Notes under the pieces: generated by a model
Database searches by the model: none
The model's input: the letters and a program-made list of their open reading frames with translations, nothing else
What the model was told of the DNA's origin: nothing
Source of the DNA: Myxococcota bacterium
Lineage (GTDB): Bacteria > Myxococcota_A > SURF-8
Assembly (NCBI GenBank): GCA_965140415.1
Contig: OZ223209.1
Location: 2,752,001-2,816,000, forward strand
Length of the DNA stretch: 64,000 nt
Direction of reading: 5' to 3'
Shown: piece by piece, positions 3,374-19,963 of the stretch
Position numbering within the stretch: position 1 is the stretch's first letter
Layout: every line of letters starts with the position of its first letter
Made by a program: the position numbers and the translations under genes

Positions 3374-3574
3374 CTAGCGCTTGGTGAACTTCCGGATCAG
3401 CAACTCCGCTCCGAGCTTGACACCTTCGGTCGCGGCCAGGGCCAGGAGAGTGACCAGAATGTCAACCTGACCCTTGCTGGCCTTAGTCGTAACGGGGTTT
3501 GTGGCGCGATCGACGCCTTCTGGGGCGGGGATGGCCTTCGGTTTCGTGTCGTTCATGTCCATCGGCTCCTCCAT
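3374..3574 (-). CDS. Small hypothetical protein with a C-terminal hydrophobic helix
   Basis: 66-aa ORF abutting the ThiF stop codon; GGAGG RBS ahead of the internal Met codons. Confidence 0.55.
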   Translation of the reverse strand: MEEPMDMNDTKPKAIPAPEGVDRATNPVTTKASKGQVDILVTLLALAATEGVKLGAELLIRKFTKR

Positions 3575-4284
3575 CAGCTTTCGCTTACGAGAACTACGGC
3601 CGAGCAGTCCACGACGATCTTGCGCGGGAGCGGCTGCCCCAGCGCGTGTTTCTTCACCAGGATGGCCACCAGCGCGCCGGTGAGCATACTGTTGTTGATC
3701 ACCGCTCGCGCCGTGCAGGGCAGCTGCATGGACTCCTCCGCCGGGTGCAGCGTATCCTCGTAAGCTTGCGCGCCCATTAGGTCGCCGTGGGACTTGGCGG
3801 TGTAGATCACGATGTACTCGCCGCCCTGACGCGGATCAATGACGGTGATCGGTTTCGAGCGTGTGCCTTGCGCCTTTGCCTGTTCCCAGATCGTCCGGCG
3901 AGCCGCCATGTTGTCCACGCAAGAGATGACCAGGCGCTTGCGCTCGTCACGACCGAGGGGCTGGTTGGTATATCGCTGGCGGAACTGGCCAGGCAAAAGA
4001 CCGGTGACGCGGTAGACCTCGACGCCCAGCGCCACAGCCTTGGGATGGCCCAGGTATTCCGCGCCGAAGAGTTGATTGGGTTGGTTGTGCGGCTCGACCG
4101 TGTCGTCGTCGTAGATATTCAAATCAGTGCAACCCATCTTGGCCAGCGCCAGGGCGGTGTAGGAGCCGGAAGCACCGGCGCCGATGATGGTGATGGGGAC
4201 GTCGAGCTTGTCCGGGTGGATGATATCGAGCTGGCTGTGAAACTGGGTGTCGAGGGTCGTGCGGTCCATGTTGTTTCGGTCCAT
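3574..4284 (-). CDS. ThiF/E1-like ubiquitin-activating adenylyltransferase
   Basis: IIGAGASGS, DDDTVEPHNQPNQ, GHPKA, SCVDNMAARR and DPRQGG motifs; candidate catalytic Cys in LPCTARA; start moved to ATG 4284, which follows AAGGAG. Confidence 0.88.
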   Translation of the reverse strand: MDRNNMDRTTLDTQFHSQLDIIHPDKLDVPITIIGAGASGSYTALALAKMGCTDLNIYDDDTVEPHNQPNQLFGAEYLGHPKAVALGVEVYRVTGLLPGQFRQRYTNQPLGRDERKRLVISCVDNMAARRTIWEQAKAQGTRSKPITVIDPRQGGEYIVIYTAKSHGDLMGAQAYEDTLHPAEESMQLPCTARAVINNSMLTGALVAILVKKHALGQPLPRKIVVDCSAVVLVSES

Positions 4285-4429
4285 ACTCGCTCCTTTCATG
4301 CTCCTTTCATGTAAGCTGTTGATTTGGTAAGGTTATTTCGCTATACTAAGCGATGTTGCTTTTCGACGTTTGATATGTTCCTTAGTGTGAAGAGGTTGAT
4401 TCCAGAGAAACGATAGGAGCGGAACGAAC

Positions 4430-6103
4430 ATGCGTATTTTAGCTTCAATTATTGTCCTGCTCAGTCTGACGATAAGTATGCAGGCGGTAGCAGATGAAGA
4501 TGTTGGTAATATCGCCATTGTCGAGGATTGGGATAACTCGATCCTGGTTTTTCCGACTTCAAATATGCCCAACGTCTTTTTAGCCAAAGTCGCCTGTCTA
4601 TTTTATCAGACGCACCAGGATCAATACGATGCTTTATTCGTATTCAACACTGCAATCTCTAATACACAACAAGGCTGGACCGTACGCAGTTTCACAGAAG
4701 GGATCGGCAAGCAGATATTCGATGGCACGACCACCTTCTGCGCCAATAACGGCCGCTTGCGGATCACCGTGAACATGGGTAACATCAGCACGTTGCCCTT
4801 TTCACCGGATGAAAGGGCCAATATCATACTCGGCTACCCCCTGACGGGAATTGAACTGCAGTGCCATGAGTTCGGGCATCACTGGTTGGCTTCCGTCAAT
4901 TATGACAAAGGCAGCGGCAGAGAATGCATGCTGCGAGGCTACGAACCCATTTTGGACCCCTTGCCTGGGGATCCCATGTGCAGCGGCGTTTATCTGAAAG
5001 ACTTCAACCAGCACTGGTCGAACAATTTCAATTCTTGTTCACTCATGTATGGCAGTTGCATCGAGGATCTTGGGGGAGGAAATTTCCGCTATACCTATGA
5101 CAATGTGAAATACAGTCAGTTGGATCAATACCTTATGGGTTTGCGCACCAAGGATGAAGTGGATCCCATGTTTTTAGTGGATACTGGTGAACTTTCTGGG
5201 ACGGGGGCATTGCCCATGCAGCATGGTTCCAGTCAGAACCATACCGGCGTACGCGTCGATCTTACCATTGATGACATCATCCGTGAAGAAGGTGAACGTA
5301 ACCCTCCATCCGATATGTGCCACTGGAAGGCGGCTTTTATTCTGGTGCACCCGGCTGGCCAACCGCCGACTCCGAATCAGATTCAGGCGGTGGACAATTA
5401 CCGTTTACGTATAGAAAGCTACTACCCATACGCAACCGATACTCGCGGCAGTTTCGACACCCGGCTTGACGGATGCGGTAGTGGAACGGATGCATGCCCG
5501 GGCGATCCCTCTCCACAATGTGGTGCGCTACCGGACGGAGACGCTGATGCCCCCGCTGATGGCGATGTGGATTGTACCTTCAACACTTTCCGCTGTTCCG
5601 ATACTGGGGCGGTCGAAATTTGTAACCCACAGGGTGAATGGCAACACCTGATGGATTGTGATCCTGGAATGCAATGCCTGGATGGCGAATGTATCCTGAA
5701 AGAGGATGGGGACATCTCCGATCAAGACGGTGATGAATCCTCCGATGGAGATACTGTGGATGATGTGGTTGATGGTGATGAATCCGCTTCGTACTGCACC
5801 TACAGCGAGACCCGCTGCATTGAGGGTACATTTGAGGAATGCAGTCGCCGCGGTGAGTGGCGCCTTGCAGAAGACTGCGAAGCAAAAGGTATGATTTGTC
5901 GGTCCGGTGAAGGTTGTGTAGACCAAGGTGGTCTTCCAATCGATGGCGATGGAAATGATTCTTCTTCAGTCGGTCAGGAAAATGGGTCTGAAGTGGGTTG
6001 TACAACTACGGAAGCACCTTCCATGCTCCTGTTAGCTTGTCTGATGATGTTGTGGGCAAGGAGAAGAACGTCCGTGTACGGCAGGGTTCCGTTCATCGGT
6101 TGA
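4430..6103 (+). CDS. Secreted HEXXH zinc metalloprotease-like protein with Cys-rich/DGD repeats and a MYXO-CTERM-like tail
   Basis: Signal peptide; HEFGHHW; C-terminal GC-x-hydrophobic-RRR. Confidence 0.7.
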   Translation: MRILASIIVLLSLTISMQAVADEDVGNIAIVEDWDNSILVFPTSNMPNVFLAKVACLFYQTHQDQYDALFVFNTAISNTQQGWTVRSFTEGIGKQIFDGTTTFCANNGRLRITVNMGNISTLPFSPDERANIILGYPLTGIELQCHEFGHHWLASVNYDKGSGRECMLRGYEPILDPLPGDPMCSGVYLKDFNQHWSNNFNSCSLMYGSCIEDLGGGNFRYTYDNVKYSQLDQYLMGLRTKDEVDPMFLVDTGELSGTGALPMQHGSSQNHTGVRVDLTIDDIIREEGERNPPSDMCHWKAAFILVHPAGQPPTPNQIQAVDNYRLRIESYYPYATDTRGSFDTRLDGCGSGTDACPGDPSPQCGALPDGDADAPADGDVDCTFNTFRCSDTGAVEICNPQGEWQHLMDCDPGMQCLDGECILKEDGDISDQDGDESSDGDTVDDVVDGDESASYCTYSETRCIEGTFEECSRRGEWRLAEDCEAKGMICRSGEGCVDQGGLPIDGDGNDSSSVGQENGSEVGCTTTEAPSMLLLACLMMLWARRRTSVYGRVPFIG

Positions 6104-6446
6104 TCTGTCGGATCTCCGGGATCTGGGAGAGCGGCGTGGGTGTGAAGTGGATGTCCCGTTCGATGGCCTGTAGGCCGGGAATGTGCTGGCCGTTGATGCG
6201 GGCTTCCAGGGATTCGAGTTCGGAGAGGCTGAAGTAGCCGAGTTCGCCGCAGCCGGGAAGGATCTCGGCCCAACCGAAACAGGTATCGCCGCCGCCGTGG
6301 TCGAACTCGGTCAGGTACCAGACGCCGTTGGAGGAATAGGCGCTGAAGAAGCGCAGATGCGCGATGGCGTCCATGCCTTTGCCGTCCTGGGCGTACAGGG
6401 GCGGTATCGCCTTGCGAATGGACTGGGGGAGTAGCTTCTGTTTCAT
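6093..6446 (-). CDS. DUF2958-like protein typical of mobile elements
   Basis: IPPLYAQD, WYLTEFD, FGWAE, ELGYFSLSELE and IERDIHF motifs; AGGAGG RBS. Confidence 0.8.
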   Translation of the reverse strand: MKQKLLPQSIRKAIPPLYAQDGKGMDAIAHLRFFSAYSSNGVWYLTEFDHGGGDTCFGWAEILPGCGELGYFSLSELESLEARINGQHIPGLQAIERDIHFTPTPLSQIPEIRQINR

Positions 6447-6637
6447 GGGTTAGCCTCCTTGTTGGTAGGGAAATGGGCGCTCCTGTCCGGGGCATCCGGA
6501 GTGGATAGCTGGACAGGTGGCTGGGATGAGAAGGGAAAGTCAGGCAAGAATGCGCTGTCTTCTTCTATACTTATAGCATATCTGAGAGTGGTTTTTCAGA
6601 TTTGGAAAAATGGAGTTTGTGACATCGCTAGAAGTGG

Positions 6638-9600
6638 TCACCTATCCAGCACTTCTCGCACCTTCTTGGCAAGAGCTTGAGGCGTGTACGGCTTACCGAT
6701 GAAGTTCAGACCTTCGTCCAACACACCGTGATGGGCGATCACGTTTTCCGTGTAACCGGAAGTAAACAATACCGTAAGGCTCGGATGCTCGGCCTTGAGC
6801 TTATCTGCCAATTCCTTCCCGTTCATCTTCGGCATGATGATATCTGTCATTAACAAATCGACAGTCAGATTTTCCTTTTTGAACAGCGTGAGTGCATCGA
6901 TGCCGGATTCAGCACAATGGACCTTATAACCTTGTCGGTCCAAGACTTTGGCGGCGATGTTTCTTACCAGACGTTCGTCCTCGACGACCAGCACCGTTTC
7001 CGTGCCTCTGGGTAAATCGTCAAACGTTACGATTCTGTTAATGCTTTCCGCTTTGGCTTCGATTCTTGGGAAGTACACTTTAAAAGTAGTTCCTTCACCC
7101 GGCTCGGAATAGACTTCTATGTGACCGTTGTTTTGTTTGACAGCACCATAAACCGTCGCTAATCCAAGTCCGGTGCCTTTATCTTTTGGTTTTGTCGTGA
7201 AGAAGGGTTCGAACAATCTGGAACGAACATCTTCCGCCATGCCGATGCCATCGTCGGACACGGCCAACATCACATACTCGCCGGGTGTTACATTTGCTCG
7301 TGTGCTGCAGTAAGTTTCGTCCAGGATCACGGAATCTGTTTCCAATGTTAAATTGCCACCGTCTATCATGGCGTCACGAGCATTGACAGCCAGATTGATA
7401 AGAATCTGCTCCAGCTGTCCCTGGTCGACTTTTACCTGCCCTAGCATCTTTTCTGGTCGGAACTTCAGGTTGATATCCTCACCGATTATCCGCCTCAGCA
7501 TTTTGAAGGAGTGATCGATGACACGGTTAAGATCAAGCACCTTTGGACTGATCAACTGTTTTCTTGAGAATGCCAGAAGCTGTTGGGTGAGGTGGGCGGC
7601 GCTGTCCGCAGCCTGATTGATTTGTTCCAAAGTATCCCTCAATGGATCATCGTTGGGAAGGTCCATCAAAGTCAAAGCTACATTACCAGTGATACCTGTC
7701 AACAGATTGTTGAAATCGTGCGCCACTCCGCCTGCCAGACGTCCGATAGATTCCATTTTCTGCGATTGCAGCAACTGATCTTGAAGCCGGGTTCTTTCCG
7801 CCTCATGTCGTTTGCGATCGCTGATATCGCGCGCCACTCCCCAAAGATAGACAGGACTGCCATCATCCCCGGTTACCGCATAGGATTGAAGTTCGACAGG
7901 GAAGATTTCGCCGTTCTTTCGTTGGTATTCTTTCTCGTAGGTTTCGGAATAGCCCTTCTGAAGCAGACGTTTTTTCCATATTTCGTCGTTTTCCCACTCG
8001 CGCCATCGTTCAGGCGTAATTTCATAGAAATCCTTCAAAGCTCGAAGTTCTTCGAGAGTATATCCCAACATTTTGCAGAATGCCTGGTTGGCATCGATAA
8101 ACGCCCCCTTTTTGTCAACCATGACGAAACCATCGCGGCTGCCTTCGAAGATCTCTCGATAACGCTCCTCCGTTTGACGAATAAGCGCCAGGTTCCTGCT
8201 ATTGTTCAGGGCCATAGCCGCTAGTTGCCCCAAGGCAGCGGCGATACGCTTGTTCTCCTCGGAAAAATCTCCGTCTTTATTTGCCAATCCCATAATGCCA
8301 ACGACCACACCTTTTATCGTCAAGGGGGCAAACATTACGTTTCGTAAATCGACATGCCCCGATGGCATGAAATTCACCCACTCGCTATTCATGAAATCAT
8401 TGTCGCAGACGCACTCACCGCTTCGATAGGCCTCGGCCCGTAACCCACGGATCGGCATGGGTAGACTTTCATCCACCGTGCAGGGCATTCCTCCCGCCTC
8501 GAGAAAGAGTACTTCGTTCTCCGCACCGTCTTCGCTCAACAGGGCCACGTAGCCTGATTGCGCACCAGTAAGATTACGAGCGATGTCGAATATTTTCCTT
8601 GCCGTGATTTCGAATGCGTTGTTTTCGAGGACATGTTTTGCCGCTTCTAACAATAACTCCAGTTCGTTGGATCGAGCTTGTTCCACGTTCAGAGCTCGTT
8701 CGCGCTCTTCTTCCGCTCTTTTCTTATCCGTGATATCTTGACCGACACCCTGAATATATGTGATGGTTTGGTTTTCGTCGAAAAAAGCCCGGTTGATCCA
8801 TGATTGCCAGCGAACTTCCCCTTCCTGATCGACTAGTTGCTGTTCGTGAGTCATCATAGGCTGTTCTGGTGAAACTCCCTTCAATCCATCGTGAAGCTGT
8901 TTGGTCATTTCTTCTGGTAGAAAGGAAAACAGGTTTTTCCCTGCAAGATCTTCTGCGTTCATTCCAGTGAATTCAGCCAGGTGAGAATTGACATAGGTAA
9001 GGGTGCCATCCGGCTTGAAAACGGAAATGTACACCGGCATATCCTCCGACAACCGCCGGTAGCGTTGCTCGCTTTCTTTTCGAAGTTCCTCCTCCGTGAT
9101 CTGTTCAGTGATATCGCTGACGGTGATCAGAAGCTTTCGATTCTTCGGATGATCCGTTTCTTCGTCCAACTGATTCGATGACAGGGTTTCCAGACGTGTT
9201 ATAAGCGGATCTCTCCGCCCCGCCTTGAAACGCACCACCAGGCTTTTCCCATCAGGATTTTTTATCAAACTGCTATAACGCGCCCGGAAAATCGACTGAT
9301 CCTCCGAAACCAGATAGTCGGCAAAAGCCTTATCGAGCAGGTCGGTTTTGTCTTTGTTGAGCATCCCGGCAAATGCACTGCTGACTTCTTTGATCAATCC
9401 GCCCGATTCCAAAACCACGTATCCGATGGGAGCGTAGTGAAAGAGGTTTGTATACTTTTGCCGGGTTCGTTCCAGTTCTTCCTGGGTCCGTCGCAATTCC
9501 TCATTCTGTAGTTCAAGCTCGATTTCATGGATCTGCAGTTCTTGAAGAACATTCCGAAGTTCTTTGGGATCCATATTCTCGAAGCGATTCGAACGAGGTT

Positions 9601-9658
9601 CAGCCAGCCGCTCTGCTCGCTTTCTCAAATCTTCATTTTTCTTTTCTTCATATGTCAT
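6638..9658 (-). CDS. PAS/GAF hybrid sensor histidine kinase with receiver domain
   Basis: GGVAHDFNNLL H-box, NLAVNARDAM, FEPFFTTK..GTGLGL, receiver TDIIMP. Confidence 0.93.
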   Translation of the reverse strand: MTYEEKKNEDLRKRAERLAEPRSNRFENMDPKELRNVLQELQIHEIELELQNEELRRTQEELERTRQKYTNLFHYAPIGYVVLESGGLIKEVSSAFAGMLNKDKTDLLDKAFADYLVSEDQSIFRARYSSLIKNPDGKSLVVRFKAGRRDPLITRLETLSSNQLDEETDHPKNRKLLITVSDITEQITEEELRKESEQRYRRLSEDMPVYISVFKPDGTLTYVNSHLAEFTGMNAEDLAGKNLFSFLPEEMTKQLHDGLKGVSPEQPMMTHEQQLVDQEGEVRWQSWINRAFFDENQTITYIQGVGQDITDKKRAEEERERALNVEQARSNELELLLEAAKHVLENNAFEITARKIFDIARNLTGAQSGYVALLSEDGAENEVLFLEAGGMPCTVDESLPMPIRGLRAEAYRSGECVCDNDFMNSEWVNFMPSGHVDLRNVMFAPLTIKGVVVGIMGLANKDGDFSEENKRIAAALGQLAAMALNNSRNLALIRQTEERYREIFEGSRDGFVMVDKKGAFIDANQAFCKMLGYTLEELRALKDFYEITPERWREWENDEIWKKRLLQKGYSETYEKEYQRKNGEIFPVELQSYAVTGDDGSPVYLWGVARDISDRKRHEAERTRLQDQLLQSQKMESIGRLAGGVAHDFNNLLTGITGNVALTLMDLPNDDPLRDTLEQINQAADSAAHLTQQLLAFSRKQLISPKVLDLNRVIDHSFKMLRRIIGEDINLKFRPEKMLGQVKVDQGQLEQILINLAVNARDAMIDGGNLTLETDSVILDETYCSTRANVTPGEYVMLAVSDDGIGMAEDVRSRLFEPFFTTKPKDKGTGLGLATVYGAVKQNNGHIEVYSEPGEGTTFKVYFPRIEAKAESINRIVTFDDLPRGTETVLVVEDERLVRNIAAKVLDRQGYKVHCAESGIDALTLFKKENLTVDLLMTDIIMPKMNGKELADKLKAEHPSLTVLFTSGYTENVIAHHGVLDEGLNFIGKPYTPQALAKKVREVLDR

Positions 9659-9691
9659 GACAAACCATTTCCCTCAGATAATGAAGAAGCA

Positions 9692-12600
9692 TTACTTCTC
9701 TTCTTTCAACTGCTTGACCGTCCCCATCAGACGGGCCGGAGCCCCATCCGCCGTTCGTTCGATAATCCGGCCTTCATCGCTCAGTGTCACATAGTCGCCC
9801 TTCTTCGCTTTCAGTCTGTAGACAGCAACGTAGGACGTCTTGCGCCCCTCCAGATGATCCCGCATGGAATCCATGGTCTTGTCGAAATCATCCGGATGAA
9901 TGCGCGAGGTCCAGAATTCGACATCCTCTCCAACCTCCTCGGGGTCGTAGCCGATCACTTCGGCCTTGCGATGGCTTGCCACGACCTTTCCATTCACGAC
10001 GTCCCAGTCCCACCAGGCCAGGCCAGCAGCCTGGAAAGCGAAGTCCAGGCGATCATTACTCGCTTTGATCTTTCGCTCACTAAGTATCCGCTCGGTGATA
10101 TCTTCAAAGGTTGTGTAGACTTGATATGGCGCATCATCACCCTCCTTGAATTCTGGGATGGCGTTGACCATGATCCATCGCATCTGGTCAAGATTGGGGT
10201 TGAAAACACCCATGATGAAACCCGAAACCGGTTGACCCGTCGTCAGGGCCACCATCGAGGGATGCTGATCCCCGGGCAGGTCACTTCCGTCTTCCTTAAC
10301 CGCTTTCCAGCGCAGATCCATCGATGTCCGACCTGCCATCTGATCGATGGTCAAGCCAAGAATTCTCTCGGCGGAAGGGTTGGCGGAGATGATCTTGCCG
10401 TCCGCCGCCTGGTACACGACACCTTGAGCCATCGTCTCGAAGAGGTTCCTGTATTTTGCTTCATTGGCCTTCAAGTTCAGTTCCATGCGTTTGCGATCGG
10501 ACGTGTCCTCGAAGCTGACCGCCAGCCGGTCATTGGGCAGACAGAAGGCATGAATACGGAAGCATCCGGTGAGGCGATCGTCTTCGTAATAAACATCTTC
10601 ACCGTAATAACTCTCTCCGGTTTCCAGCACCTTCAAGAAGCTCTGCGCGATCCCGCTCTTTCGCGCCTCCGGCCAGATAAGGTCGAAGCTTTTTCCCTTC
10701 CATTCATCAGACTTGATGCCGGTCAATTTCTCGGCTTCCGGATTGCCCGATTCGAAAATCAGGTCGTCGTTCTCATCTTTGCGATAGATGAAAAGACCGG
10801 CTGGCATATGCTGAATGATGTCTTCCGATTGCCGTCGGCTCTCACGCAGGTGTTCCTGTGTCCTGGTCAATTCTGAGATATCAACAAAAGTCAGTACGAC
10901 GCCGGAGAACGTCTTGGGACCGATGTGATAAGGCAGAATGCGCATCAGGTAGGTGCTTCCATCCTCCGCCAGCACATCCTTCTCGAAAGTCTTATTGCTT
11001 TCTCGAACCTTTCGGATCTCTTTGGCCGGATCGAAATCAACCAGGCGATGAGCAAGGTGCGTGATAGGGCGTCCGATATCCTTTTCCATGATGCGGAACA
11101 CCCGTCCGACCTCCGGGGAATACTTCCGAATTTCCAGATCCTCATCGAGCAGCAGCGTACCGATACGCGAATGGGTCAACAGGTTGTCCACATCATTATT
11201 CAATTCAGTCAGTTCATTGATCTTGTTCTGATACTCGGAGTTGACGGTATAGAGTTCTTCATTAGTGCTCTGCAGCTCTTCGTTGGTGCTCTGCAATTCT
11301 TCATTGCTCGCGAGCAGTTCTTCGTTGGTCGCCTGCAGTTCCTCGTTGGCTGTTTCCAGTTCTTCGATCGTGGCCTGCAGATTCTCGCGTGTGAATTGAA
11401 GATCCTGTTCCAAATCCCGGATGCGTTGTTGTGCCTCTTCGCTCAGGTCATAACTCGCAGCAATGTCTTCCTTGTCTTTTTCTTTTTCTCGTTTGATTTC
11501 TTCGAGAAAGACCGCTACCAGCGTTTCGTGCCCCTTTTTCTCCGGAAGGGGAATGATCTGCATGTGGACGCTTCGGGTTTCGTTCATATCGCGCAAGAGG
11601 ATGTTGGTGTAAGTAATCTTCTGTTTGCTACGGAAAACCTTTTGAATTCCGGTGGCCAGAGGAATCGCCAGATCCTTGGTTACCATTTTCGAGATATCAT
11701 AGACAGCGCGACCGGAGGGCAGTTTGAAATACCCCCCCGAATCGCCGATGGTATGCAGGATCTCCATGTTCTCGTTGACGACGATTGCCAACGGCACGAA
11801 GTTCTCCGAGAGAAGGTCCAACAGACGATTGATCACCCAGTATTCTTCACTGTTGGCAAAACGCCGCTGATACATGCCGGTCTGACCCGGAATGCGATAG
11901 TGGCGCTGCTCCCTGGGTTCGGCAGAGATGACCTGTCCGGAAGCCTGGGCCTTGCCCTTGGATTTGTATATTTTGTGTTTCTGATGCAGGGTTTCAAAGT
12001 ACTGTTGCATCTCTCCTACGGTTTCACTGGTCCCCAGAAAAAGCACTCCCTCGGCACTGAGAGAGAAATTGAACATTTCGAGGGCTTTCTGCTGCAAAAC
12101 CGGCTGAAGGTAGATCAAAAGGTTGCGACAGCTGACCAGATCGATGTTAGTGAAGGGGGGATCTTTGACCAGATTGTGTTGCGCAAAGACCACCATTTCC
12201 CTCACATGCCGGGCAATCTGAAAATTATCTTCCTTGCGGTAGAAGTACTTGCCGAGAAGTTTCGGCGTCAAATCCGCAGCGATGCTTTCAGGATACAGAC
12301 CCGCTCCGGCTGTGAGGATGGCGTTTTTGTCGATGTCCGTCGCAAAGATTTTTATATCGCGACTGATCCCCAGCTTTTCCATTGCCTCCCTGGCAAGGAT
12401 AGCAAGCGTATAGGCTTCTTCTCCCGTTGAACAGCCGGCCACCCAGAAACGGATTTCCCGGTTTGTAGAGCGTCCAAGGACACTCGGTAGCTGCTTCTCT
12501 TCCAGATATCTCATTGCTTCGGGATCACGGAAAAAGCTGGTGACACCGATGAGCAGCTCACGATAGAGGGTGATGACCTCCCCCGGATAATTCATGATGT

Positions 12601-13404
12601 AGCTGACGTAATCTTCGATATCCTTGATCTGGTTGATGGTCATTCGACGTTCCAAGCGCCGGATGATGGTACTGGGTTTGTAGAAGGTGAAGTCAACTTT
12701 CGTCTTTTCGCGCAACTCGGCGAAAATCCGTGTCATGCTGTCTTCATCCTTCAGCAGCTTTTCGGAGCGCTTTTGACGCGATTCATAGGGATGCTTGACA
12801 AAGGCCAGTAGTTGTTCGGGCATTTCCTCCGGAGGGAGGATAAAATCCGCCACGCCGGTCGAAATGGCCGCACGGGGCATGCCGTCGAACTTGGCGCTCT
12901 CTTCATCCTGCACCATGACCATTCCGCCGAATTCCTTGACCGCGCGCACACCCCGCGTCCCATCGCTACCCGTACCTGAAAGAACGATAGCAACCGCTCG
13001 TTCTGCTTGATCCTCCGCCAGTGAACGCAAGAAGATATCGATTGGAAGGTTAATTCCCGCAGTGGGTTCCTGTTCCTTCAGAAGAAGTTTGCCATGAAAA
13101 ATGGTCAGGTTCGTTTTCGGTGGTATGAGGTAGACGTGATCCCCTTGAACTACCATTCCTTCTTCGGCCCTCAAGACTCTCATTTGAGTCTTCTTGGAAA
13201 GGAGCTCGACCATCAGGCTCTTGTAGTCCGGGGATAAATGTTGAATGACGATAAAGGCCAAGCCGCTCTCCGGCGGCATGCTTTTGAAAAAAGCCTCTAT
13301 TGCTTCAAGGCCACCTGCGCTAGCGCCGACGCCGACATAGTGGGAAGGTCGATCATCCGGTTGATTCTGCTTGTCTTGGCTTGATCCGTTTTCTTTTCAC
13401 TCAT
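9692..13404 (-). CDS. CheB methylesterase-CheR methyltransferase-coiled coil-PAS fusion; apparent 1-nt frameshift near the start
   Basis: VGVGASAGG lies in frame upstream of the track start (13279); [26 protein letters not shown] and SCRNLLIY motifs; ATG at 13404 overlaps the upstream stop codon but is one base out of frame. Confidence 0.88.
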
Positions 13405-13982
13405 TCCTGATCCTTCCTGTCGGAGTCGATAATTTCCATGATACTGATTCGGAAATACGGATTCGATTCGAATTGAAACCCTTCATGCGAACTCAAGCCA
13501 TAATTGGCGGCCTGCAGCCTTACCCAGGGACCAGGCAGTTTGTCCACGAGAAGTTGAATACTTATGCTTTCCGATAAACCGGTTTTCACCAGACGCTTGA
13601 GCCAACTCACGTACTTGGATTGGCTGTCTTCTGAAACCAGGGGGAAGAAATGCTTACCCAGGATTTCGACCAGATCCTTGTGAACCAGACGGGTGAATTC
13701 GAGATTGGCCCGTTGAATGGCTCCATCCGAGTCGACCACCAGATAACCGATGGGGGCGAAATGAAAGAGATCAAAGTATTCGGCCCGTGATTTCTGCAAT
13801 TCTTCATGGGCGCAGCGCAGCTCCTCATTTTGCAATTCCAACTCGATCTGATGGACGCGAAGTTCATGTATTACCCGAATCAGCTCTTCGCTCTCCATCT
13901 TTTCGATATCGATGTTTTCCTCGGTGAGCAGAGCTTCCGCCTGCCCTCGGAGCGCTTCCAGACCACAGTTTTCATTGCTCAT
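13401..13982 (-). CDS. PAS domain protein with ELxVHQIELELQNEEL coiled coil
   Basis: Paralogous to the N-terminus of the 6638-9658 kinase; GGAGGA RBS before ATG 13982. Confidence 0.8.
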   Translation of the reverse strand: MSNENCGLEALRGQAEALLTEENIDIEKMESEELIRVIHELRVHQIELELQNEELRCAHEELQKSRAEYFDLFHFAPIGYLVVDSDGAIQRANLEFTRLVHKDLVEILGKHFFPLVSEDSQSKYVSWLKRLVKTGLSESISIQLLVDKLPGPWVRLQAANYGLSSHEGFQFESNPYFRISIMEIIDSDRKDQE

Positions 13983-14163
13983 TTGATAAATCCTCCGATG
14001 GTCGGATTCGGTTCTGAAATCCGATTCACGCCAGCCATCGCGGCGCAACTTAGCCGGTATGCCTGTCACTTTTTCATACTTCTTCACCTATAAAGTATAC
14101 GGCAAACGAGCAGAAAACATTATACAATTAATTTACACAGACTGGCTATGTAATACCTGTGTA

Positions 14164-15468
14164 TTAGAGAGACTTCAGGTAGGTCACGAGATTCGTCGAC
14201 TGGCCGACAAGGCCCAGCTTTTTCCGGATATTCATCCGGTGGCTGTCGACGCCACGACTGCCGATGTTCAACAAGTGACTGATTTCTTTAGAAGAAAGTC
14301 CCTGTTTGATCATCTCGCAAATCTGAATTTCTCTTGGGGTGAGGCCCAGTTCGGGTCTGGTGAACTTTGAGGAATTTTCTGAAAGCAGATCCCGCAAACT
14401 GCGCTCCAGCAGGCGTTCGTATTCCGCTCGGTGTTTACCTTCCGCCAGCGACAAGGCGGAAACCAGAGGAAGAACGATCTCTTCTATATTGTTGGAGATT
14501 CTACGTTGTAGCGATTTTGATTCCCTCTTTGAGTGGGCGACAAGCTCTGACAGAGCAACGTTCTTCCGCTCCAGAAGGAAGTTCTGTTCCTCGATTTCTC
14601 TTCGTTTCAGAATAAGCTCTCGTTCCAGTTGCTTCTGCTCGGTGATATCCTGGTGGACTCCGATCATTCGAACGGCTTCGCCTTCCCCCGTGCGCTCGAC
14701 AACCCTGGCGCTGGCTCGCATCCAGCGATATTCCCTGTTTTTCGTTCGCAATCGGAATTCATTCTCGTAGGTATCGGGCTTTGTTTTCAGGTATTCCATG
14801 GCGACCGAAAGGGCGCGGTCCAGATCTTTCGGGTGAATCAGCGCTTTCCAATTCTCGAAATCAGCGGGGAACTCGTCCGGCTCATACCCAAGCATACTGT
14901 AGTATCGGGGGCTGAATTGAAGCTCATCGGTGACAAAATTCCATTTCCAAATGCCATTGGTTGTGGCTTCGAGAGTCAGTTCCAATTCGTGCTGATGAAA
15001 GCTTGCTTCCTGCTGAATCTTAACCAGTCTGGTGATTTCCGTGTGCGATCCAAGCATGCGCACAGGATCGCCTTTCTCATCTGCGAATACGGATCCCTGA
15101 GCCAGAATATTCCGGTACGAACCGTCCTTATGGCGGAAACGGAAGCGCGCTTCAAAGTCCGAAGCCACATTGCGGATGTTCTCCTCTACCATCGCAACGA
15201 CCGCTTCCTGATCATCCGGATGAACTCGGCTTTGCCATTCTGCTAGATCGTTGCCGATTTCTTCCGGTTCGTAGCCGATTTGCCGCTTCCATTCGTCGGA
15301 GTATGACACCTTGTTTGATTTCAGATCCCAGTCCCACAAGCCGACTCCGCTGGCTTTGACCGCCTCCATCTCGCGTAAATAAGCTTCACGCTCGATCTCC
15401 TCGATACGCTTTCGAGCAAACTCCAACTCATCGATCAATTGAGCCTTGGTCTTTTCATGGTCCGCCAT
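14164..15468 (-). CDS. PAS-PAS-LuxR family transcriptional regulator
   Basis: Two PAS_3 domains (GLWDWD..RVHPDD); LTPRE..GLSSKEIS..HRMNIRKKLG HTH; start trimmed to MADHEK. Confidence 0.9.
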   Translation of the reverse strand: MADHEKTKAQLIDELEFARKRIEEIEREAYLREMEAVKASGVGLWDWDLKSNKVSYSDEWKRQIGYEPEEIGNDLAEWQSRVHPDDQEAVVAMVEENIRNVASDFEARFRFRHKDGSYRNILAQGSVFADEKGDPVRMLGSHTEITRLVKIQQEASFHQHELELTLEATTNGIWKWNFVTDELQFSPRYYSMLGYEPDEFPADFENWKALIHPKDLDRALSVAMEYLKTKPDTYENEFRLRTKNREYRWMRASARVVERTGEGEAVRMIGVHQDITEQKQLERELILKRREIEEQNFLLERKNVALSELVAHSKRESKSLQRRISNNIEEIVLPLVSALSLAEGKHRAEYERLLERSLRDLLSENSSKFTRPELGLTPREIQICEMIKQGLSSKEISHLLNIGSRGVDSHRMNIRKKLGLVGQSTNLVTYLKSL

Positions 15469-15652
15469 GGTAGCCCCAATGCCATACTGCTCTGAAAATA
15501 CAGCACATATACCTTCTCTCACAATAATTGCGCAGTGTACAATGATGTCAGATAAAAGGCGAGGAAAAGAAGAAAAGTAGATTTGAGATTCAGAGAGTAT
15601 TCGGTCAGCTAAAAGGAAGAGGCTAGCACCTCTTCCCGGGAACAGCGTTCCC

Positions 15653-16504
15653 TTAAACAATCCTTTCGGCGACACCTTCCACATAACCCCATTCTCCCAG
15701 CACCTGCAGAACCGACCAGGGATCGAACGCCCGGCCATCACCGCCGAGGACACCATCAAGGATGACCCAGAACTCGTCCAGGTCACCCTGCCAGTCCTCG
15801 ATGGCTTCGAGCAACTCCGCCGCCTGGTCGGGATTCAGGCCGACGAGTTGCAGTTCGGCGAGGATGTCGTCATCGGACGGCGAGTTGCCGGTGTGTTCGC
15901 TGAATCGACGATCAAGACCGAAGCCGAGATCGAATCCTTCATCCGGCCAGACCAGTCCCCAAGGCGCGGCGGGTGCGTTGACCTTGTCACGCAGTTCCCT
16001 TTCCAACGCCTCGTCCTGTTCCACGTTGGCCAGAAAACCGACCTTGATCTGGTCGACGGTGATGCGCCACGGTGAGTACAGGTCCAACCGAACGCGGAAG
16101 TGTCCGGCCTTGTTCGTCACAATGCTGACGAGCCAGTCGCCGTTGTCCATCTGTTCGATGGTGTCTGCATCCTCCGACGACCAGAAGCAGTTCATGTCGG
16201 CGTGGCTGTGCGCCCAGCAGCGAAGGTCGGACACGTCGTGCCCCGCTTTGACCAACTCGGTCATCAGCGCACCCATCGACTCGCGGTCGGGTGAGGTGTG
16301 GCTGTCGGTGCATGTCTGCTCCGGCAGGAAGAAGGCTTTCACGATGATAGCGCTGCTGTCGGGATCGAGTTCAGTCACCCCGAAGCAGGAAAATTCACCA
16401 CGTGCCGCCTGCGTCCAGACGCGCAACTGCTTCTCTGCTTCAGCCGACAGCAAAACCTTCGGCACACGGTTCGCCAGTTTCCGCTTCGTCTCCGTCGGTT
16501 CCAT
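15653..16504 (-). CDS. JAB/MPN+ metallo-isopeptidase (deubiquitinase-like) with an acidic C-terminal extension
   Basis: GEFSCFG glutamate; WAHSHADMNCFWSSED fits HxH-x7-S-x2-D; start trimmed to MEPTETK. Confidence 0.88.
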   Translation of the reverse strand: MEPTETKRKLANRVPKVLLSAEAEKQLRVWTQAARGEFSCFGVTELDPDSSAIIVKAFFLPEQTCTDSHTSPDRESMGALMTELVKAGHDVSDLRCWAHSHADMNCFWSSEDADTIEQMDNGDWLVSIVTNKAGHFRVRLDLYSPWRITVDQIKVGFLANVEQDEALERELRDKVNAPAAPWGLVWPDEGFDLGFGLDRRFSEHTGNSPSDDDILAELQLVGLNPDQAAELLEAIEDWQGDLDEFWVILDGVLGGDGRAFDPWSVLQVLGEWGYVEGVAERIV

Positions 16505-17987
16505 CTTCCTGCTCGTCATCGTCTTTTTCATCTTCATCAACCCAGGCGCAGCATTCGGATCGGTGCTCGCAGTCCGGGCATTCGGGTTCATTTCGTTCAC
16601 GGCAATCCTCCTCGTTTTCGGGGTGTAAGGCGCACCATTCGCGGTGGCATTGCAGACATTCATACGGCCCGCCGTCGTTGCGGCAATCGTCGCGCACATC
16701 ATCAAGATACGGACAGCGCGAATCCCCGCAGTCCAGGCACTCGCTGGGGGAGCTGTTTTCGTTGCAGCGCTCCCACCGGCTGTCCCAGTGCGGGCAATCG
16801 CGGTCGTTGCATTCGATGCAGCTGGCCTCTCCCGCATCCAGACAGTCGTCGTATTCATCACGATCTTCGTCGAACCATTGAACGTACGGGTCCAGCGGGT
16901 TGTAGCTGGTGATGTATTCGTCGAGCAAGAGTAGCAGCGTTCCCCATTCGCGCTGGGCCATGAGTTTGTTTACGTCATCGCCGATGTTGCCCAAACACGG
17001 GCTGCCCTGCGTGGAAATGTGCGGATGGAAGTAATCTCCGCGCCATTCGTTGTTGCCGACGGCTTCAAACTTAATCAGTTCTTTGCCGGTCAGCTCGATG
17101 CGGCAACGGATGTCACCAAGCTCCGATGTCTCGCCTGAATCCGGATCTTCGATCTGCACATCGGTATGCACGGCCACGAGTTCCGTGTCGCTGATGCTGA
17201 TGGACTGGAATCGTTCACCGACGAGGGACTGCAGCTGCTGGCTGATGCGCTTGACTGCTGCTTCCGTCCGCCCGCATTTCTCGTTGACGGCCAGGCGGAG
17301 CAATCTTTCCTGCTCCCTTTGCTGTGTCAGCGTGGCAATCAGGCGATTGTACTGCCGGGATAACTCCTGCATATTGCTTTCGTTGTCGCGGATGTCCTGC
17401 TGAGTGCGTTCCAAACTCTGGCGGGAGAGCGCGCTGTAGAAGCTGCCAAAGCGGCGTACCGTCTCGACCGGGTTGGGTGTCTGCATGGCATTCCGGCAAG
17501 CCCAGTCGAAGCCGTCCTTGAAGATGTGTGTCAGCAGGGAGCGCTTGGCTCCGAAGGTGACCTCCAGACCATTCTGAAACCTGATGCTGTTTTCATCGAT
17601 GCGACCGATGTACAACGTCGAGCCGTCCAGCGTCCACGCGCCATGTACGTACGGCACCTGGAGTTCGGGGCCGTGCTCCATCGGAAGCCAGCGCTTGCGG
17701 TCTTCGTTTAGCAGCTTGCGCCGCTCACCGGTCACCGCCGCGTTTACCGGCGCCAGGTAGAAGCGGAAATCATCGTCGATGTCGTTCAGCGTGACCAGCG
17801 CGGTCACCTCGCATTCCCGGCTGGTGATGATCGTCGCCACGGGGCCGAGCGTGTACGCCGCATCCGAGCGATCATCTTCCTTCACCTGGACGATGGGACG
17901 CTGATCGGCAGGGTAGTCGAGCAGCCACTCCTGCATGAGTGCCCGAAGGATCTCCGGGATGCGGGTGGTATCGTTAAGCGTGTCCAT
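16440..17987 (-). CDS. Prokaryotic E2-like (UBC fold) protein with an N-terminal coiled coil and C-terminal Cys-rich repeats
   Basis: YFHPHISTQGSPCLG resembles the E2 HPN..G..C signature (Cys codon 16995-16997); GGAGGT RBS before ATG 17987. Confidence 0.75.
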   Translation of the reverse strand: MDTLNDTTRIPEILRALMQEWLLDYPADQRPIVQVKEDDRSDAAYTLGPVATIITSRECEVTALVTLNDIDDDFRFYLAPVNAAVTGERRKLLNEDRKRWLPMEHGPELQVPYVHGAWTLDGSTLYIGRIDENSIRFQNGLEVTFGAKRSLLTHIFKDGFDWACRNAMQTPNPVETVRRFGSFYSALSRQSLERTQQDIRDNESNMQELSRQYNRLIATLTQQREQERLLRLAVNEKCGRTEAAVKRISQQLQSLVGERFQSISISDTELVAVHTDVQIEDPDSGETSELGDIRCRIELTGKELIKFEAVGNNEWRGDYFHPHISTQGSPCLGNIGDDVNKLMAQREWGTLLLLLDEYITSYNPLDPYVQWFDEDRDEYDDCLDAGEASCIECNDRDCPHWDSRWERCNENSSPSECLDCGDSRCPYLDDVRDDCRNDGGPYECLQCHREWCALHPENEEDCRERNEPECPDCEHRSECCAWVDEDEKDDDEQEDGTDGDEAETGEPCAEGFAVG

Positions 17988-18000
17988 AATACCTCCTGAT

Positions 18001-18036
18001 AAAAAGCGAACGGCGGAAGGTTTCCCCTCCGCCGCT
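18001..18036 (-). terminator. Hairpin plus U-tract between the Ubl and E2 genes
   Basis: CGGCGGA/TCCGCCG stem followed by TTTTT on the minus strand. Confidence 0.55.
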
Positions 18037-18057
18037 CTGGTCCTGACCTCCTTTCGG

Positions 18058-18324
18058 CTACTGGTTGACCACCACGCCACCGTCGACCTTCGGCGTGAGC
18101 GCGATGATGTCGCCGTCGTCGGGACGTTCGTGCAATTGGGTGTGGACGCCGTTCAGCGTCGCCATGTAGCCTTCGCTCTGAAAGCCCGCCGAGAGGAGAG
18201 CATCGGCGCAGGTAGAGCCCGCCGGGACGGTGACCTGGTGCTGCCTGCCGATCGAGACGACGGTGACGCGGATGCCGTGATTGCGGTTCTGGGACTGCTG
18301 GTCGTTGCTCTGATTCTGATCCAT
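18058..18324 (-). CDS. Ubiquitin-like beta-grasp protein, pro-form ending ...PKVDGG-VVVNQ
   Basis: 88 aa from ATG 18324 (AGGAGG RBS); VTVPAGSTCADAL..G, LNG and DGDIIALTPKVDGG fit the MoaD/ThiS/Ubl pattern. Confidence 0.85.
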   Translation of the reverse strand: MDQNQSNDQQSQNRNHGIRVTVVSIGRQHQVTVPAGSTCADALLSAGFQSEGYMATLNGVHTQLHERPDDGDIIALTPKVDGGVVVNQ

Positions 18325-18369: not shown

Positions 18370-18392
18370 AAAAACGCCGCCTCGTGGGCGGC
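18370..18392 (-). terminator. Hairpin plus U-tract upstream of the Ubl gene
   Basis: GCCGCC-CACGA-GGCGGC-GTTTTT on the minus strand. Confidence 0.55.
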
Positions 18393-18427: not shown

Positions 18428-19186
18428 TTACTCGGCTCTGTCGCCGTTCTCCTCGTCCCCATTGGGCTGGATAACGCCACGCAGGTTCTCGAAGATCGTC
18501 TTGAACTGCCTGATTTCCTGCTCGTTGCAGTCTTCTTCCTTCGCCAACTCCAACACGGCATACGTACCGATGGGCATGGTGAGCGAGAGGCGGGTTTTAC
18601 ACGTGAACAGCGGCAGGTCGGCGCGCTGACCGTCCGGAAGCTGGAGCTTTCCGAGGAAGTGGCGCGCCAGATAGCGCTGGACGGGTTTGCGCGACGTGGC
18701 TTTGGCACGGACGATGAACGGATTTTCATCATCCAGATCGATACCAAGCAAGCTGTACACGACATCGCAGTCGGGAGCGGTGGGCTGGCTGTTACCGCGA
18801 CCCCACAAGCGATGTCGGCAGGTGGCGCAGTCCACGACCTCGCCGTCGGTGCGGACACCTTCCACGCCGTCATCCGAACGGCAGTGTTCGGTCATGCCGG
18901 AAGTCTCGCTGTACGTGGCCCACCTTCGGGACTTCTTGATGTGCAACAGGACGCAGGTGATCTCGTCTTTGGCTTCACCAGTCAGGCTGTTGACGAAAAT
19001 GTCTTTCGGAGCCCAGGTTCCGTTATGGAGCTGACGGCGGGTGTTGTAAGCATAGGAAGGGAGCGGCCGATCTTCATTGTCCAGATGGGACAGGGCCTGA
19101 AGACCGGCCAGCTCTTCGATGAGGGATTGGGGGATGGGAAGAATTGGCGCGCCCGTCGCCGGAGGGGAATGGGTGTTCTCGGTCAT
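18428..19186 (-). CDS. Phage-type hypothetical protein with Cys motifs (possible Zn-binding ssDNA-binding protein)
   Basis: HCRSDDG..CATC..W..PDC pattern, acidic tail, AGGAG RBS; function inferred only. Confidence 0.55.
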   Translation of the reverse strand: MTENTHSPPATGAPILPIPQSLIEELAGLQALSHLDNEDRPLPSYAYNTRRQLHNGTWAPKDIFVNSLTGEAKDEITCVLLHIKKSRRWATYSETSGMTEHCRSDDGVEGVRTDGEVVDCATCRHRLWGRGNSQPTAPDCDVVYSLLGIDLDDENPFIVRAKATSRKPVQRYLARHFLGKLQLPDGQRADLPLFTCKTRLSLTMPIGTYAVLELAKEEDCNEQEIRQFKTIFENLRGVIQPNGDEENGDRAE

Positions 19187-19261: not shown

Positions 19262-19963
19262 TCAGACCGAAAGAGAAAGCTTCGCCGTCTGAGCCAGTTC
19301 GCGGCCAAGCGCCTTCAGGCGATGATGGGCTCGGCTGACGCTCATCCCGACCGCCTTTCCGCACTCCTGGAAACTGCCTCCGGCCAGGCGCGCCGCCAGC
19401 AAGCGGCGATCTTGCTCGGTCTGCTCGTCAAGCCAGGCTTCCAGGTCGAAGGCGCTGACGAGCTGGTCCTCCACGTCGCGGGTCGCCGCGTAGGAGACGG
19501 CGTCAACGAAGCTCATGGGATTGTCGCGGGTCAGATCGTTGTCGGCATAGGGACCGGGCTCCACGTCGGGCAAACCGTCGAAGCGCAGAACTTGGATGCC
19601 GTCCCACAGACAGGCCATTGCGCCCATGACATCCCGGCGACGGCGACGACCGGGGACGAAGCAGTGGGACGGATCGAAAGCCTTGAGTCGCAGGCCATGA
19701 ACGAGCGCCCCGCGGTCGGTGGAATGACCTTTCATCGCCGCGGAATAATAATCGCGCCAGATCAGGCACAGGGCTTCCTGGAATCGGTCTTCCGCATCGT
19801 GCGCGTCGTCCAAGTGGCGCATGACCGGATTGAAGATGTCATCGGCGATCATGTCGCTGAAATTCGCGTTGATCGCTTCGTGGGAAAGGGGAAGAGGTGA
19901 ATTCAATTGAAGGGGATGATGGGGGTGATCGGGTTGGGAATCGGTTTGCATACAGTTTTCCAT
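19262..19963 (-). CDS. Divergent sigma-70/ECF-like factor with a region-4 HTH
   Basis: AEDRFQEALCLIW resembles region 2; RLAGGSFQECGKAVGMSVSRAHHRL HTH; GGAGGT RBS. Confidence 0.6.
   Translation of the reverse strand: MENCMQTDSQPDHPHHPLQLNSPLPLSHEAINANFSDMIADDIFNPVMRHLDDAHDAEDRFQEALCLIWRDYYSAAMKGHSTDRGALVHGLRLKAFDPSHCFVPGRRRRRDVMGAMACLWDGIQVLRFDGLPDVEPGPYADNDLTRDNPMSFVDAVSYAATRDVEDQLVSAFDLEAWLDEQTEQDRRLLAARLAGGSFQECGKAVGMSVSRAHHRLKALGRELAQTAKLSLSV

Follow-up and report, generated by a model that had tools for sequence, protein, structure and literature searches.

A predicted ubiquitin-like conjugation cassette in the backbone of an integrative element of a Myxococcota bacterium

Bacterial ubiquitination-like pathways (CBASS Cap2/3, Bil and Bub) have so far been read as host immunity. 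Do bacterial mobile elements and phages also use protein tagging, whether offensively or for self-regulation? This testable question is raised by a locus in a 64,000-nucleotide stretch of the genome of a Myxococcota bacterium (assembly GCA_965140415.1, contig OZ223209.1, positions 2,752,001 to 2,816,000; herein the window), whose minus strand encodes a ubiquitin-like protein (Ubl), an E2-like conjugating enzyme, a JAB protease, a DUF2958 protein and a ThiF-type E1. A preliminary description, made from the letters of the window, took these for a complete conjugation system that sits in the backbone of an integrated mobile element and differs from Bil, CBASS and PRTRC. Open reading frames (ORFs) and their translations confirm all five genes where that description had placed them. 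We lean, with modest confidence, toward the view that they encode a working Ubl conjugation cascade, part of the conserved backbone of a 62.56-kb element, and that the cascade serves that element (in its establishment, in the control of its replication or in counter-defence) and is not cargo for host defence. What is new here, as far as sequence comparison goes, is a Ubl-E2-deubiquitinase (DUB)-E1 cassette drawn from E1 and E2 families other than those of Bil and tied to the core of mobile elements and phages.

Linkage of the core genes

The genes of the system, with the two that precede them, lie in the window as follows.

3574-4299, minus strand: ThiF/E1, 241 residues (Pfam ThiF, 1.1e-14)
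6093-6446, minus strand: DUF2958 protein, 117 residues (Pfam PF11171, 2e-13)
About 15653-16537, minus strand: JAB/JAMM metalloprotease, about 295 residues, with a C-terminal extension
16440-17987, minus strand: E2-like conjugating enzyme, 515 residues, with an invariant HPH...C motif
18058-18324, minus strand: Ubl precursor, 88 residues, beta-grasp of the SAMP2/ThiS/MoaD type
18428-19186, minus strand: p252, 252 residues, fold without assignment; directly upstream of Ubl in the close clade
19262-20011, minus strand: sigma-like protein, 249 residues, with a C-terminal helix-turn-helix (HTH) resembling sigma-70 region 4; heads the conserved block

The cassette is split in the window, a point that the preliminary description left unstated. 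The JAB gene is parted from the DUF2958 gene by 9.2 kb of sensor-kinase cargo (6638 to about 15500), and the DUF2958 gene from ThiF by a plus-strand gene for a 557-residue protein (4430-6103). Whether the parts belong together is best seen in relatives. In L014, a locus from a Myxococcota metagenome-assembled genome (MAG), p252, Ubl, E2, JAB, DUF2958 and ThiF run on without interruption (4094-8072), with 15 nt between JAB and DUF2958. A neighbourhood survey, which the preliminary description had proposed, covered 21 distant loci, read with hidden Markov models (HMMs) built from family alignments: 16 came from Myxococcota, where 401 genomes were scanned, two from IMG/VR viral contigs and three from further MAGs, one of them Ignavibacteriaceae. 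E2, JAB and E1 are adjacent in all 21, with the order E2-E1-JAB in one of them (L023). Ubl lies upstream in 16, namely 14 of the 16 from Myxococcota (the contigs of the other two end at E2) together with L020 and L024. p252 and DUF2958 are confined to the close clade.

Because the genes are contiguous in L014 and adjacent in every distant locus, the association of the parts is, judged by gene order, far beyond chance. The linkage across loci therefore defines the core unit as Ubl-E2-JAB-E1 and the window's version as one with junctions opened by cargo; the ancestral arrangement, by the same reading of gene order, is one operon, (p252)-Ubl-E2-JAB-(DUF2958)-E1. Cargo is found at junctions elsewhere too: 4 kb of Lcl_C genes occupies the JAB-DUF2958 junction of L016, and 8.7 kb of caspase/FGE-sulfatase genes lies between Ubl and E2 in L017.

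The family to which the E2-like protein belongs is large, and neither Pfam, NCBIfam nor PADLOC includes it. Searching 1.84 billion representative proteins with an E2-core profile gave 4,730 matches at E<=1e-3 and 1,170 at E<=1e-10, the latter being representatives of clusters at 50% identity; in most matches the core lies in the C-terminal half of a protein of 350-550 residues. When 50 of the best 150 relatives were sampled, 49 had no Pfam family and one matched UQ_con below its cut-off (24.1 vs 27 bits). Of 401 Myxococcota genomes sampled, 22 carry the core, often more than once; in two other phyla, likewise sampled at 401 genomes each, 3 and 2 genomes have it. Annotation pipelines, and studies of how the eukaryotic E2 fold arose, could draw on such an unannotated family. 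Two tandem E2 paralogues were observed in L022 (664-1977 and 2121-3407), whose genome (G402) has five E2-core matches within about 1.2 Mb.

Predicted activities of the gene products

The window's Ubl ends in ...PKVDGGVVVNQ, that is, in PKVDGG followed by a VVVNQ tail. The single sequence matches Pfam ThiS below the cut-off (E 6.9e-4, 20.5 bits; cut-off 22.5), and a profile of 12 family members matches SAMP2 over its full length (1.7e-7), the match ending at the GG, followed by MoaD and ThiS. A GG and 0-5 variable residues close all 24 Ubl orthologues (VVVNQ, AVAHQ, C, SK, AR, AHHA and others); a single one ends exactly at the GG, and 23 carry a tail. With the GG kept and the tail variable, Ubl therefore looks like a protease-processed conjugation tag: a strict GG with a variable, disposable tail points to proteolytic maturation.

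Could Ubl and ThiF instead be a sulfur-carrier pair, forming a thiocarboxylate for cofactor synthesis or for tRNA or DNA modification, with the E2-like and JAB proteins accessory or unrelated? The nearest relatives would fit, being SAMP2, ThiS and MoaD for Ubl and ThiF and MoeB for the E1, and SAMP- and Urm1-type proteins can do both jobs, according to a review (PMC11354881). The surroundings of the pair make this reading very improbable: rhodanese, ThiG/ThiH, MoaE and other sulfur acceptors are absent from all Pfam scans of the loci, an E2 with an invariant Cys and a JAMM protease are strictly linked to it (21/21), and the Ubls so regularly carry a removable extension past the GG. An ordinary thiamine or molybdopterin locus was considered separately and rejected because no partner gene of either pathway was seen; Pfam scans of the window contain no CD-NTase, ParB, thiamine or molybdopterin genes, as the preliminary description had also held.

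The JAB gene starts at an ATG at 16537 or 16504, so that its 5' end overlaps the 3' end of the E2 gene. The HxH..S..D motif noted earlier is intact and, together with E53, forms a JAMM site (E53...H115-S-H117-x7-S125-x2-D128) that is invariant in 12/12 members. Pfam gave no match with the single JAB sequence. Against PDB sequences, the family profile found deubiquitinases at 1.8e-7 to 1e-4, with an Rpn11-like protein best (6fjv_A, 1.8e-7, which we take to be the Caldiarchaeum enzyme) and CSN5 and Rpn11 also among them; it matched AMSH as well. The full zinc site and the matches to Rpn11 and CSN5 identify the product as a predicted JAMM/MPN+ metalloprotease.

The E2-like protein carries the HPH..G.PCLG motif of the preliminary description in the stretch YFHPHISTQGSPCLGNIG, and the residues H321, P322, H323, G328, P330, C331, L332, G333 and N334 are invariant in 13/13 homologues. 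The signature is thus HPH-x7-C, an invariant H321-P-H323 with an invariant C331 eight residues downstream. Word-sharing homologues of the protein number 13 among 5.8 billion proteins. It comprises a beta-rich N-terminal domain (about 1-140), a long helix or coiled coil (about 145-235), a UBC-like core (about 238-378), Cys repeats (about 408-480) and an acidic tail. The repeats (window 16440-16800) are three full and one partial copy of CX2CX4CX9C, roughly 27 residues each; similar ones occur in the distant members P0014, P0016 and P0020, and they could bind zinc and act in target choice.

Whether the core has a UBC fold, on which the preliminary description had made its reading depend, was checked with a family profile, an AF2 model and structural alignment with VIA-align; in each comparison eukaryotic E2s come out best, with modest scores. 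The profile's best match among PDB sequences is Ubc13/UBE2N, over the whole UBC domain and with HPH...C aligned on HPN...C (E 0.023). The AF2 model has a predicted local distance difference test (pLDDT) score of 70 and a predicted template-modelling (pTM) score of 0.37, with the C-terminus poorly modelled; it contains a helix of ~90 residues and, at 238-378, a helix, a four-strand meander and further helices. VIA-align superposes it on UBE2S with Z 8.5 and a root-mean-square deviation (rmsd) of 4.7 Å over 121 aligned residues. A scan of 48,161 chains, run independently of Foldseek, places UBE2E1 first (Z 7.9); its first four rows are E2 enzymes (Z 7.9-7.4), and the remaining rows are long helices matching the coiled coil. 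Overall the structural matches have Z 7.9-8.5 over 115-121 residues with an rmsd of 4.7-4.8. Because fold, profile alignment and invariant active-site motif agree, we accept the core as a predicted UBC fold.

The E1 is a single adenylation domain, with one Pfam ThiF match (54.7 bits vs a cut-off of 28.1). Its length is 241 residues in the window and 208-250 in most relatives. The Rossmann GxGxxG, D64, K87, D129, R134 and Cys195 (within LPCT) are invariant, a set that includes the Asp, Arg and Lys for ATP and the Asp for Mg. Cys195, the candidate catalytic Cys of the preliminary description, is kept in 9/9 members and lies 66 residues past the Mg-binding Asp; it would probably carry Ubl as a thioester. 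The best PDB matches of the profile are E. coli ThiF (6e-16) and UBA5 (5e-14), and Cap2 (1e-6) and BubCD (1.7e-5) score far lower; the window E1 also matches a PHROG of small ThiF-like phage proteins (2.1e-10). DUF2958 sits between JAB and E1 in the close clade only, adjoining ThiF in L014, L016 and the copies B, C and D described below, and is absent from distant cassettes. Its profile found only chance-level matches to designed TPR proteins in the PDB, and the literature mentions of DUF2958 that turned up have no bearing on such a cassette. A complex prediction for E1 with DUF2958 scored 0.00; run without controls, it bears neither way.

We infer the steps of the cascade from homology, and its biological role from context. 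Ubl would be made as a precursor ending in GG-VVVNQ, from which the JAMM protease would trim the tail to expose Gly-Gly, probably also reversing conjugates. The minimal ThiF/UBA5-like E1, presumably a homodimer, would adenylate the C-terminal Gly of Ubl and probably load Ubl on Cys195. Ubl would then be handed to Cys331 of the E2, at a classical His-Pro-x...Cys site, and ligated to a target lysine independently of an E3. Because no separate E3 is encoded, picking the target would fall to the E2 itself, through its N-terminal domain, its coiled coil or its Cys-repeat tail.

The integrative element and its copies

Two 48-bp direct repeats equal the tRNA-Ala(GGC) 3' end, one at genome C1:2722385-2722432 (L012:2385-2432) and one at window 32896-32943. 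The left repeat lies within an intact tRNA-Ala gene beside a tyrosine integrase gene (L012:2476-3663), 29.6 kb to the left of the window start. On the strength of the repeats and the integrase we delimit an integrative element of 62.56 kb in tRNA-Ala, which contains the whole cassette and within which the window start lies; with these borders, and with the block kept in three copies, the element backbone of the preliminary description stands. Its right part encodes a DUF927 primase-helicase and a PolA-like polymerase, together with an HTH protein and the IS481-like product. Among the ORFs scanned, which are a part of all ORFs of the elements, none was seen to encode a capsid, a terminase or type IV secretion. 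The further features of the window are listed here.

4430-6103, plus strand: 557-residue secreted-type protein, outside the system, with a signal-peptide-like N-terminus and a Cys-/Asp-rich C-terminus
6638-9658, minus strand: hybrid histidine kinase, cargo (Pfam)
9692-13279, minus strand: CheB-CheR-PAS protein, cargo (Pfam)
13401-14087, minus strand: PAS protein, cargo (Pfam)
14164 to about 15460, minus strand: PAS-PAS-LuxR regulator, cargo (Pfam)
18008-18037, minus strand: terminator-like hairpin between Ubl and E2, GC-rich, 13 pairs and then a T-run
18376-18392, minus strand: terminator-like hairpin between p252 and Ubl, GC-rich, then a T-run
22615-23625, plus strand: IS481-like gene (NCBIfam IS481 3e-30; 105.7 bits vs a cut-off of 224)
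24879-26555, minus strand: PolA-like polymerase, replication module (Pfam, PHROGs)
Between the PolA-like and DUF927 genes (module 24879-29472), minus strand: 221-residue protein, replication module
27415-29472, minus strand: DUF927 primase-helicase, replication module (Pfam, PHROGs)
32896-32943, plus strand: attR, 48-bp direct repeat of the tRNA-Ala(GGC) 3' end

The block of sigma-like protein, p252, Ubl, E2 and JAB is present in three copies in the genome, with E2 identities of 100, 91 and 83%. Between copies the DNA of the block is 90% and 83% identical over 4.9 kb, and the flanking cargo differs. Two further related elements lie at genome C1:3324298-3386703 and at about 5324000-5412000 (L004-L011); that of copy C is 62.4 kb long and sits at tRNA-Pro(GGG), and no borders were found for that of copy B. 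Copies B and C have in common DUF2958-ThiF, the Ubl block, a backbone gene for 283 residues and an McrBC that has a TY-Chap2 domain. At the position of the replication module both encode a 1,530-residue protein in which a DnaB-like helicase, a 3'-5' exonuclease and PolA are fused; in copy B the N-terminus of this protein also matches an AEP-primase domain. The elements are also rich in defence genes (McrBC, a type IIG restriction-modification (RM) system of the Eco57I type, AbiE and NERD-UvrD). The IS481-like gene is found at the same place in all three elements (L008:4110-5114; L011:13612-14664), its proteins 78-80% identical, and at the thresholds applied Pfam gives only HTH and leucine-zipper parts in copies B and C. 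Instead of an insertion sequence, it may be a regulator or recombinase that the element has domesticated.

The split itself recurs. JAB and DUF2958 are 9.2 kb apart in the window, and 27 and 22 kb apart in copies B and C, respectively; what fills the junction in the copies is unrelated (surface proteins, kinases, sugar metabolism); the window's sensor-kinase cargo DNA is not common to the other element copies. The 557-residue gene is missing from the DUF2958-ThiF junction in copies B, C and D, where the pair is adjacent. The window's element holds two DUF2958-ThiF pairs, each split by a plus-strand gene for a secreted protein: the first by the gene at 4430-6103, the second by a 430-residue gene with BNR repeats (L012:17266-18558). 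System genes have a GC content of 0.59-0.67, and the DNA between them, including the sensor-kinase cargo, 0.50-0.52. The junctions between cassette genes thus act as cargo landing sites, which bears on how such elements grow. As a side observation, cargo by the cassette in Myxococcota and in an Ignavibacteriaceae MAG repeatedly includes large secreted proteins whose domains are FGE-sulfatase, Lcl_C, Laminin_G_3 or Kelch, in some cases joined to caspase domains (L014, L016, L017, L020, L063, L068 and copies B and C).

Has the system in the window, then, decayed, the cargo having cut off E1 and DUF2958 from the other three genes and the pathway having come to a halt in this element? Inserts of 9.2 kb and 1.7 kb do lie within the former operon; fragments of JAB (at 2170677, 4128899 and 5442337) and of ThiF (at 4155720) are found elsewhere in the genome beside five intact DUF2958-ThiF pairs, and the window's ThiF-DUF2958 pair is without the downstream backbone DNA that trails the other copies. 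Several observations tell against a remnant, however. The five genes are intact, and between copies the ratio of nonsynonymous to synonymous substitution rates (dN/dS) is 0.11-0.14 for E2, 0.12-0.15 for JAB, 0.06-0.13 for E1 (five copies) and 0.07-0.16 for DUF2958. Over E2, JAB, p252, ThiF and DUF2958 the range is 0.06-0.16, with no internal stops in any gene, from which it follows that the split genes are still maintained; the outlier is one Ubl pair, at 0.85 over 72 codons. Strong Shine-Dalgarno sites (GGAGG or AGGAG) are kept 5' of Ubl, E2 and DUF2958, and also of p252, in line with the GC-rich genes and strong ribosome-binding sites of the preliminary description. Copies B and C keep the same split architecture, and any of the five intact E1 genes could act in trans. 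Decay is accordingly assigned a small chance. On the reading of a working cascade, cargo would have landed in the junctions and put the E1 gene at its present distance, about 11-14 kb, from those of its three partners; the gene is still under purifying selection.

Hairpins after Ubl and p252 could, as a lead only, yield more Ubl than enzymes. Hairpin and T-run sites in the region number 6, compared with 5.2 in shuffles, which is not above the controls.

Known systems and the probable role

Does the cassette belong to a system already described? No description of this family was found in a search that left outside it the survey of bacterial E1/E2/RING/JAB operons by Burroughs et al. (2011) and the supplementary operon tables of Bil and Bub, which may list it. 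Like the archaeal SAMP/UbaA/JAMM1 system, the cassette combines a JAMM protease and a SAMP2-type Ubl with an E1 of ThiF type that lacks a separate Cys domain; sampylation needs no E2 (PMC11354881), whereas here an E2 with an invariant Cys is strictly linked and the setting is a bacterial mobile element. With the Caldiarchaeum-type operon (Ub, E1, E2, a small RING protein and Rpn11), in which the Ub precursor is processed by a JAMM enzyme (PMC6043591), it has in common a classical-looking E2 site and an Rpn11-like JAB. That operon's E1 has a distinct Cys domain of roughly 60 residues (PMC11354881), whereas the E1 here has none, and there is no separate RING gene.

Bub (6E/DUF6527) is likewise mobile and sporadic; it has relatives of Ubl, E1 and E2, and its type I has a JAB as well. 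It is described as using Ser and Tyr oxyesters, Ubl-E2 or E2-E1 fusions and the DUF6527 serine protease (PMC11601596); here, in contrast, the genes are unfused, E2 and E1 each have an invariant Cys, and the Pfam scans of the window and the loci show no DUF6527. CBASS Cap2/Cap3 and 6A-MBL use the same E1, E2 and JAB chemistry, and the sole PADLOC and NCBIfam defence matches of the E1 are of Cap2 type, confined to residues 33-97 (the nucleotide-binding loop; 43 bits, far under the cut-off of 320). Unlike those systems, the cassette has no E2-E1 fusion, CD-NTase or MBL, and it has a dedicated Ubl. PRTRC and operon type 6d of Iyer 2006 bring together a ThiF-type E1, JAB, a small Ubl and an E2-like protein on plasmids and integrative and conjugative elements. 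The window E1 reaches 43.4 bits with PRTRC_ThiF (TIGR03736), for which the cut-off is 144.75, and the scans gave no match to other PRTRC proteins or ParB. Type 6d is set apart by an E2 without the classical His and with a downstream His, a JAB with JAB-N and an extra alpha-helical protein (PMC1779556), none of which is seen here; indeed, none of the five operon types 6a-6e of that paper fits the cassette.

In layout the cassette resembles Bil, with separate genes in the order Ubl-E2-DUB-E1 in L014 and 20 of the 21 distant loci. Bil has this same order and a DUB that exposes the C-terminal Gly of Ubl (preprint 10.1101/2023.09.26.559546), and it acts without a separate E3 (PMC11601596); the cassette too is without a separate E3 and is carried sporadically on mobile DNA. 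Given the common order, it is therefore not a new kind of system, despite its different E1 and E2 families. The Bil E1, as far as described, is a pseudo-dimer with one inactive and one active adenylation domain and an inserted catalytic Cys domain of ~80 residues, whereas the E1 here has one ThiF domain in 208-250 residues; in the Bil E2 the Cys precedes a downstream His (CEHH), whereas here a classical His-Pro-x lies 8 residues before the Cys. The cassette E2 moreover bears an N-terminal domain, a coiled coil and Cys repeats, and the cassette belongs to an element backbone beside replication genes. No Bil proteins are among the PDB sequence matches listed for E2, JAB and E1 (for E1, the best 60 of 70). 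In PADLOC-DB 2.0.0, for which the presence of Bil models is unconfirmed, Ubl and JAB have no match and the E2 has chance-level ones (E 0.024 and 0.072) to unrelated models in the coiled-coil region. The distinctness from Bil, CBASS and PRTRC claimed in the preliminary description is thus upheld for the defining features, and extends to Bub, with gene order common to Bil; the E1 architecture and E2 motif differ from those of Bil, and the Bub features were not found. The chemistry would be that of the immune pathways, carried out with other parts (an E1 of minimal ThiF type, and an E2 that has the classical site and putative targeting domains of its own) and located in the core of mobile elements and in viral contigs.

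The company kept by the cassette elsewhere bears on its role. Its neighbours in L020 are an integrase and a Mu Gam-like gene. A PD-(D/E)XK nuclease is nearby in L058, L060, L063 and L067, and next to that of L067 lies a Rad52-like annealase. L061 and L068 have a DnaG-type primase and a type IV coupling protein (T4CP)-like ATPase, L061 also a relaxase, and L024 an SNF2 helicase. Serine or tyrosine recombinases are also among the neighbours, and Thoeris-like and SIR2 genes occur in relatives of the elements. The cassette is carried by two IMG/VR viral contigs, the nearest ESM Atlas cluster (score 0.93) is labelled 73% viral, and by tblastn E1s like that of the window occur in 79 phage records. 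In the replication modules of Flavobacterium phage FpV4 (L071, 3698-5633) and of the crAss-like phage cr85_1 (L072, 3814-5711), beside a primase and a uracil-DNA glycosylase, a JAB-like gene (about 1e-7) lies directly 5' of a ThiF gene (about 5e-33) annotated 'thiamine biosynthesis protein'. The E2-core HMM found nothing, even at E<=10, in the gene upstream of these pairs (370-420 residues), so that the full cassette is not established in FpV4 and cr85_1; tblastn of the full E2 against plasmid and phage collections returned nothing.

Is the cassette, then, Bil-like anti-phage defence cargo that the element merely transports? The Bil gene order, the DUB exposing a C-terminal Gly and the missing E3 would all suit that role, as would the sporadic spread over genomes and the company of McrBC, Eco57I-type RM, AbiE and NERD-UvrD genes on the elements and of Thoeris-like and SIR2 genes in their relatives. 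We take it seriously and nevertheless consider it less likely than an element function. The cassette is the conserved part that receives cargo inserts, not the reverse; it adjoins replication, recombination and transfer genes, away from the variable defence stretch; E2, JAB and Ubl have no PADLOC match above chance level, with the limit on Bil models given above; three copies, 83-91% identical, would be redundant in one genome; and viral contigs carry the cassette, with related JAB-ThiF pairs in genomes of lytic-type phages. An element function is favoured because a conserved backbone takes up cargo, because the neighbours in unrelated element types serve replication, recombination or transfer, because viral contigs are among the carriers, and because the cassette has multiplied with the element. 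That it may serve the element had been proposed in the preliminary description; its place in replication and recombination modules of mobile elements elsewhere makes this, from context, the probable role.

Several points weigh against a working, element-serving cascade. Conjugation activity is predicted from sequence, and with the operon broken in the window, E1 may not be expressed together with Ubl, E2 and JAB. MoeB-type enzymes form no thioester (Iyer 2006, PMC1779556), and so minimal an E1 may or may not form one. For the E2, Foldseek with the whole model gave no match at E<=0.001, with probabilities of up to 0.98 for E2 enzymes; 0/13 members match Pfam at E<=10, including UQ_con (PF00179) and Prok-E2_A-E; and the scores behind the UBC assignment are weak, with E 0.02 and Z in the middling range of the tool, below its safe level. 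The viral share of the nearest ESM Atlas cluster is taken from 11 members with known phylum. Defence genes on the elements and the Bil gene order mean that a defence role fits as well, and three near-identical copies are silent on who benefits.

A broader proposal, which we regard as doubtful, is that the cassette represents a fourth major class of bacterial Ubl conjugation, with the most eukaryote-like E2 and JAMM, encoded by phages and integrative or conjugative elements, and not by hosts, in a replication and establishment module so as to tag proteins of the host or of rival elements (e.g., defence or replication factors). If such a class exists, bacterial viruses and mobile elements would run their own ubiquitination of the cell.

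The preliminary description had further placed the system behind a sigma-like factor and a phage-type gene. Both genes do lie upstream, and the labels are weak. The sigma-like label derives from NCBIfam TIGR02937 (E 1.1e-4; 21.8 bits vs a cut-off of 42.9); the protein has no match among PDB sequences and is 100% identical in copy B. 'Phage-type' for p252 derives from a PHROG of unknown function (E 2.3e-4). The p252 profile found no match among PDB sequences, its AF2 model is unusable (pLDDT 46), and none of its 20 homologues is named. It has four conserved Cys (C102, C120, C123 and C140) and an acidic tail at the C-terminus, and its predicted secondary structure is mostly beta, features that, at a guess, recall phage single-stranded-DNA-binding proteins.

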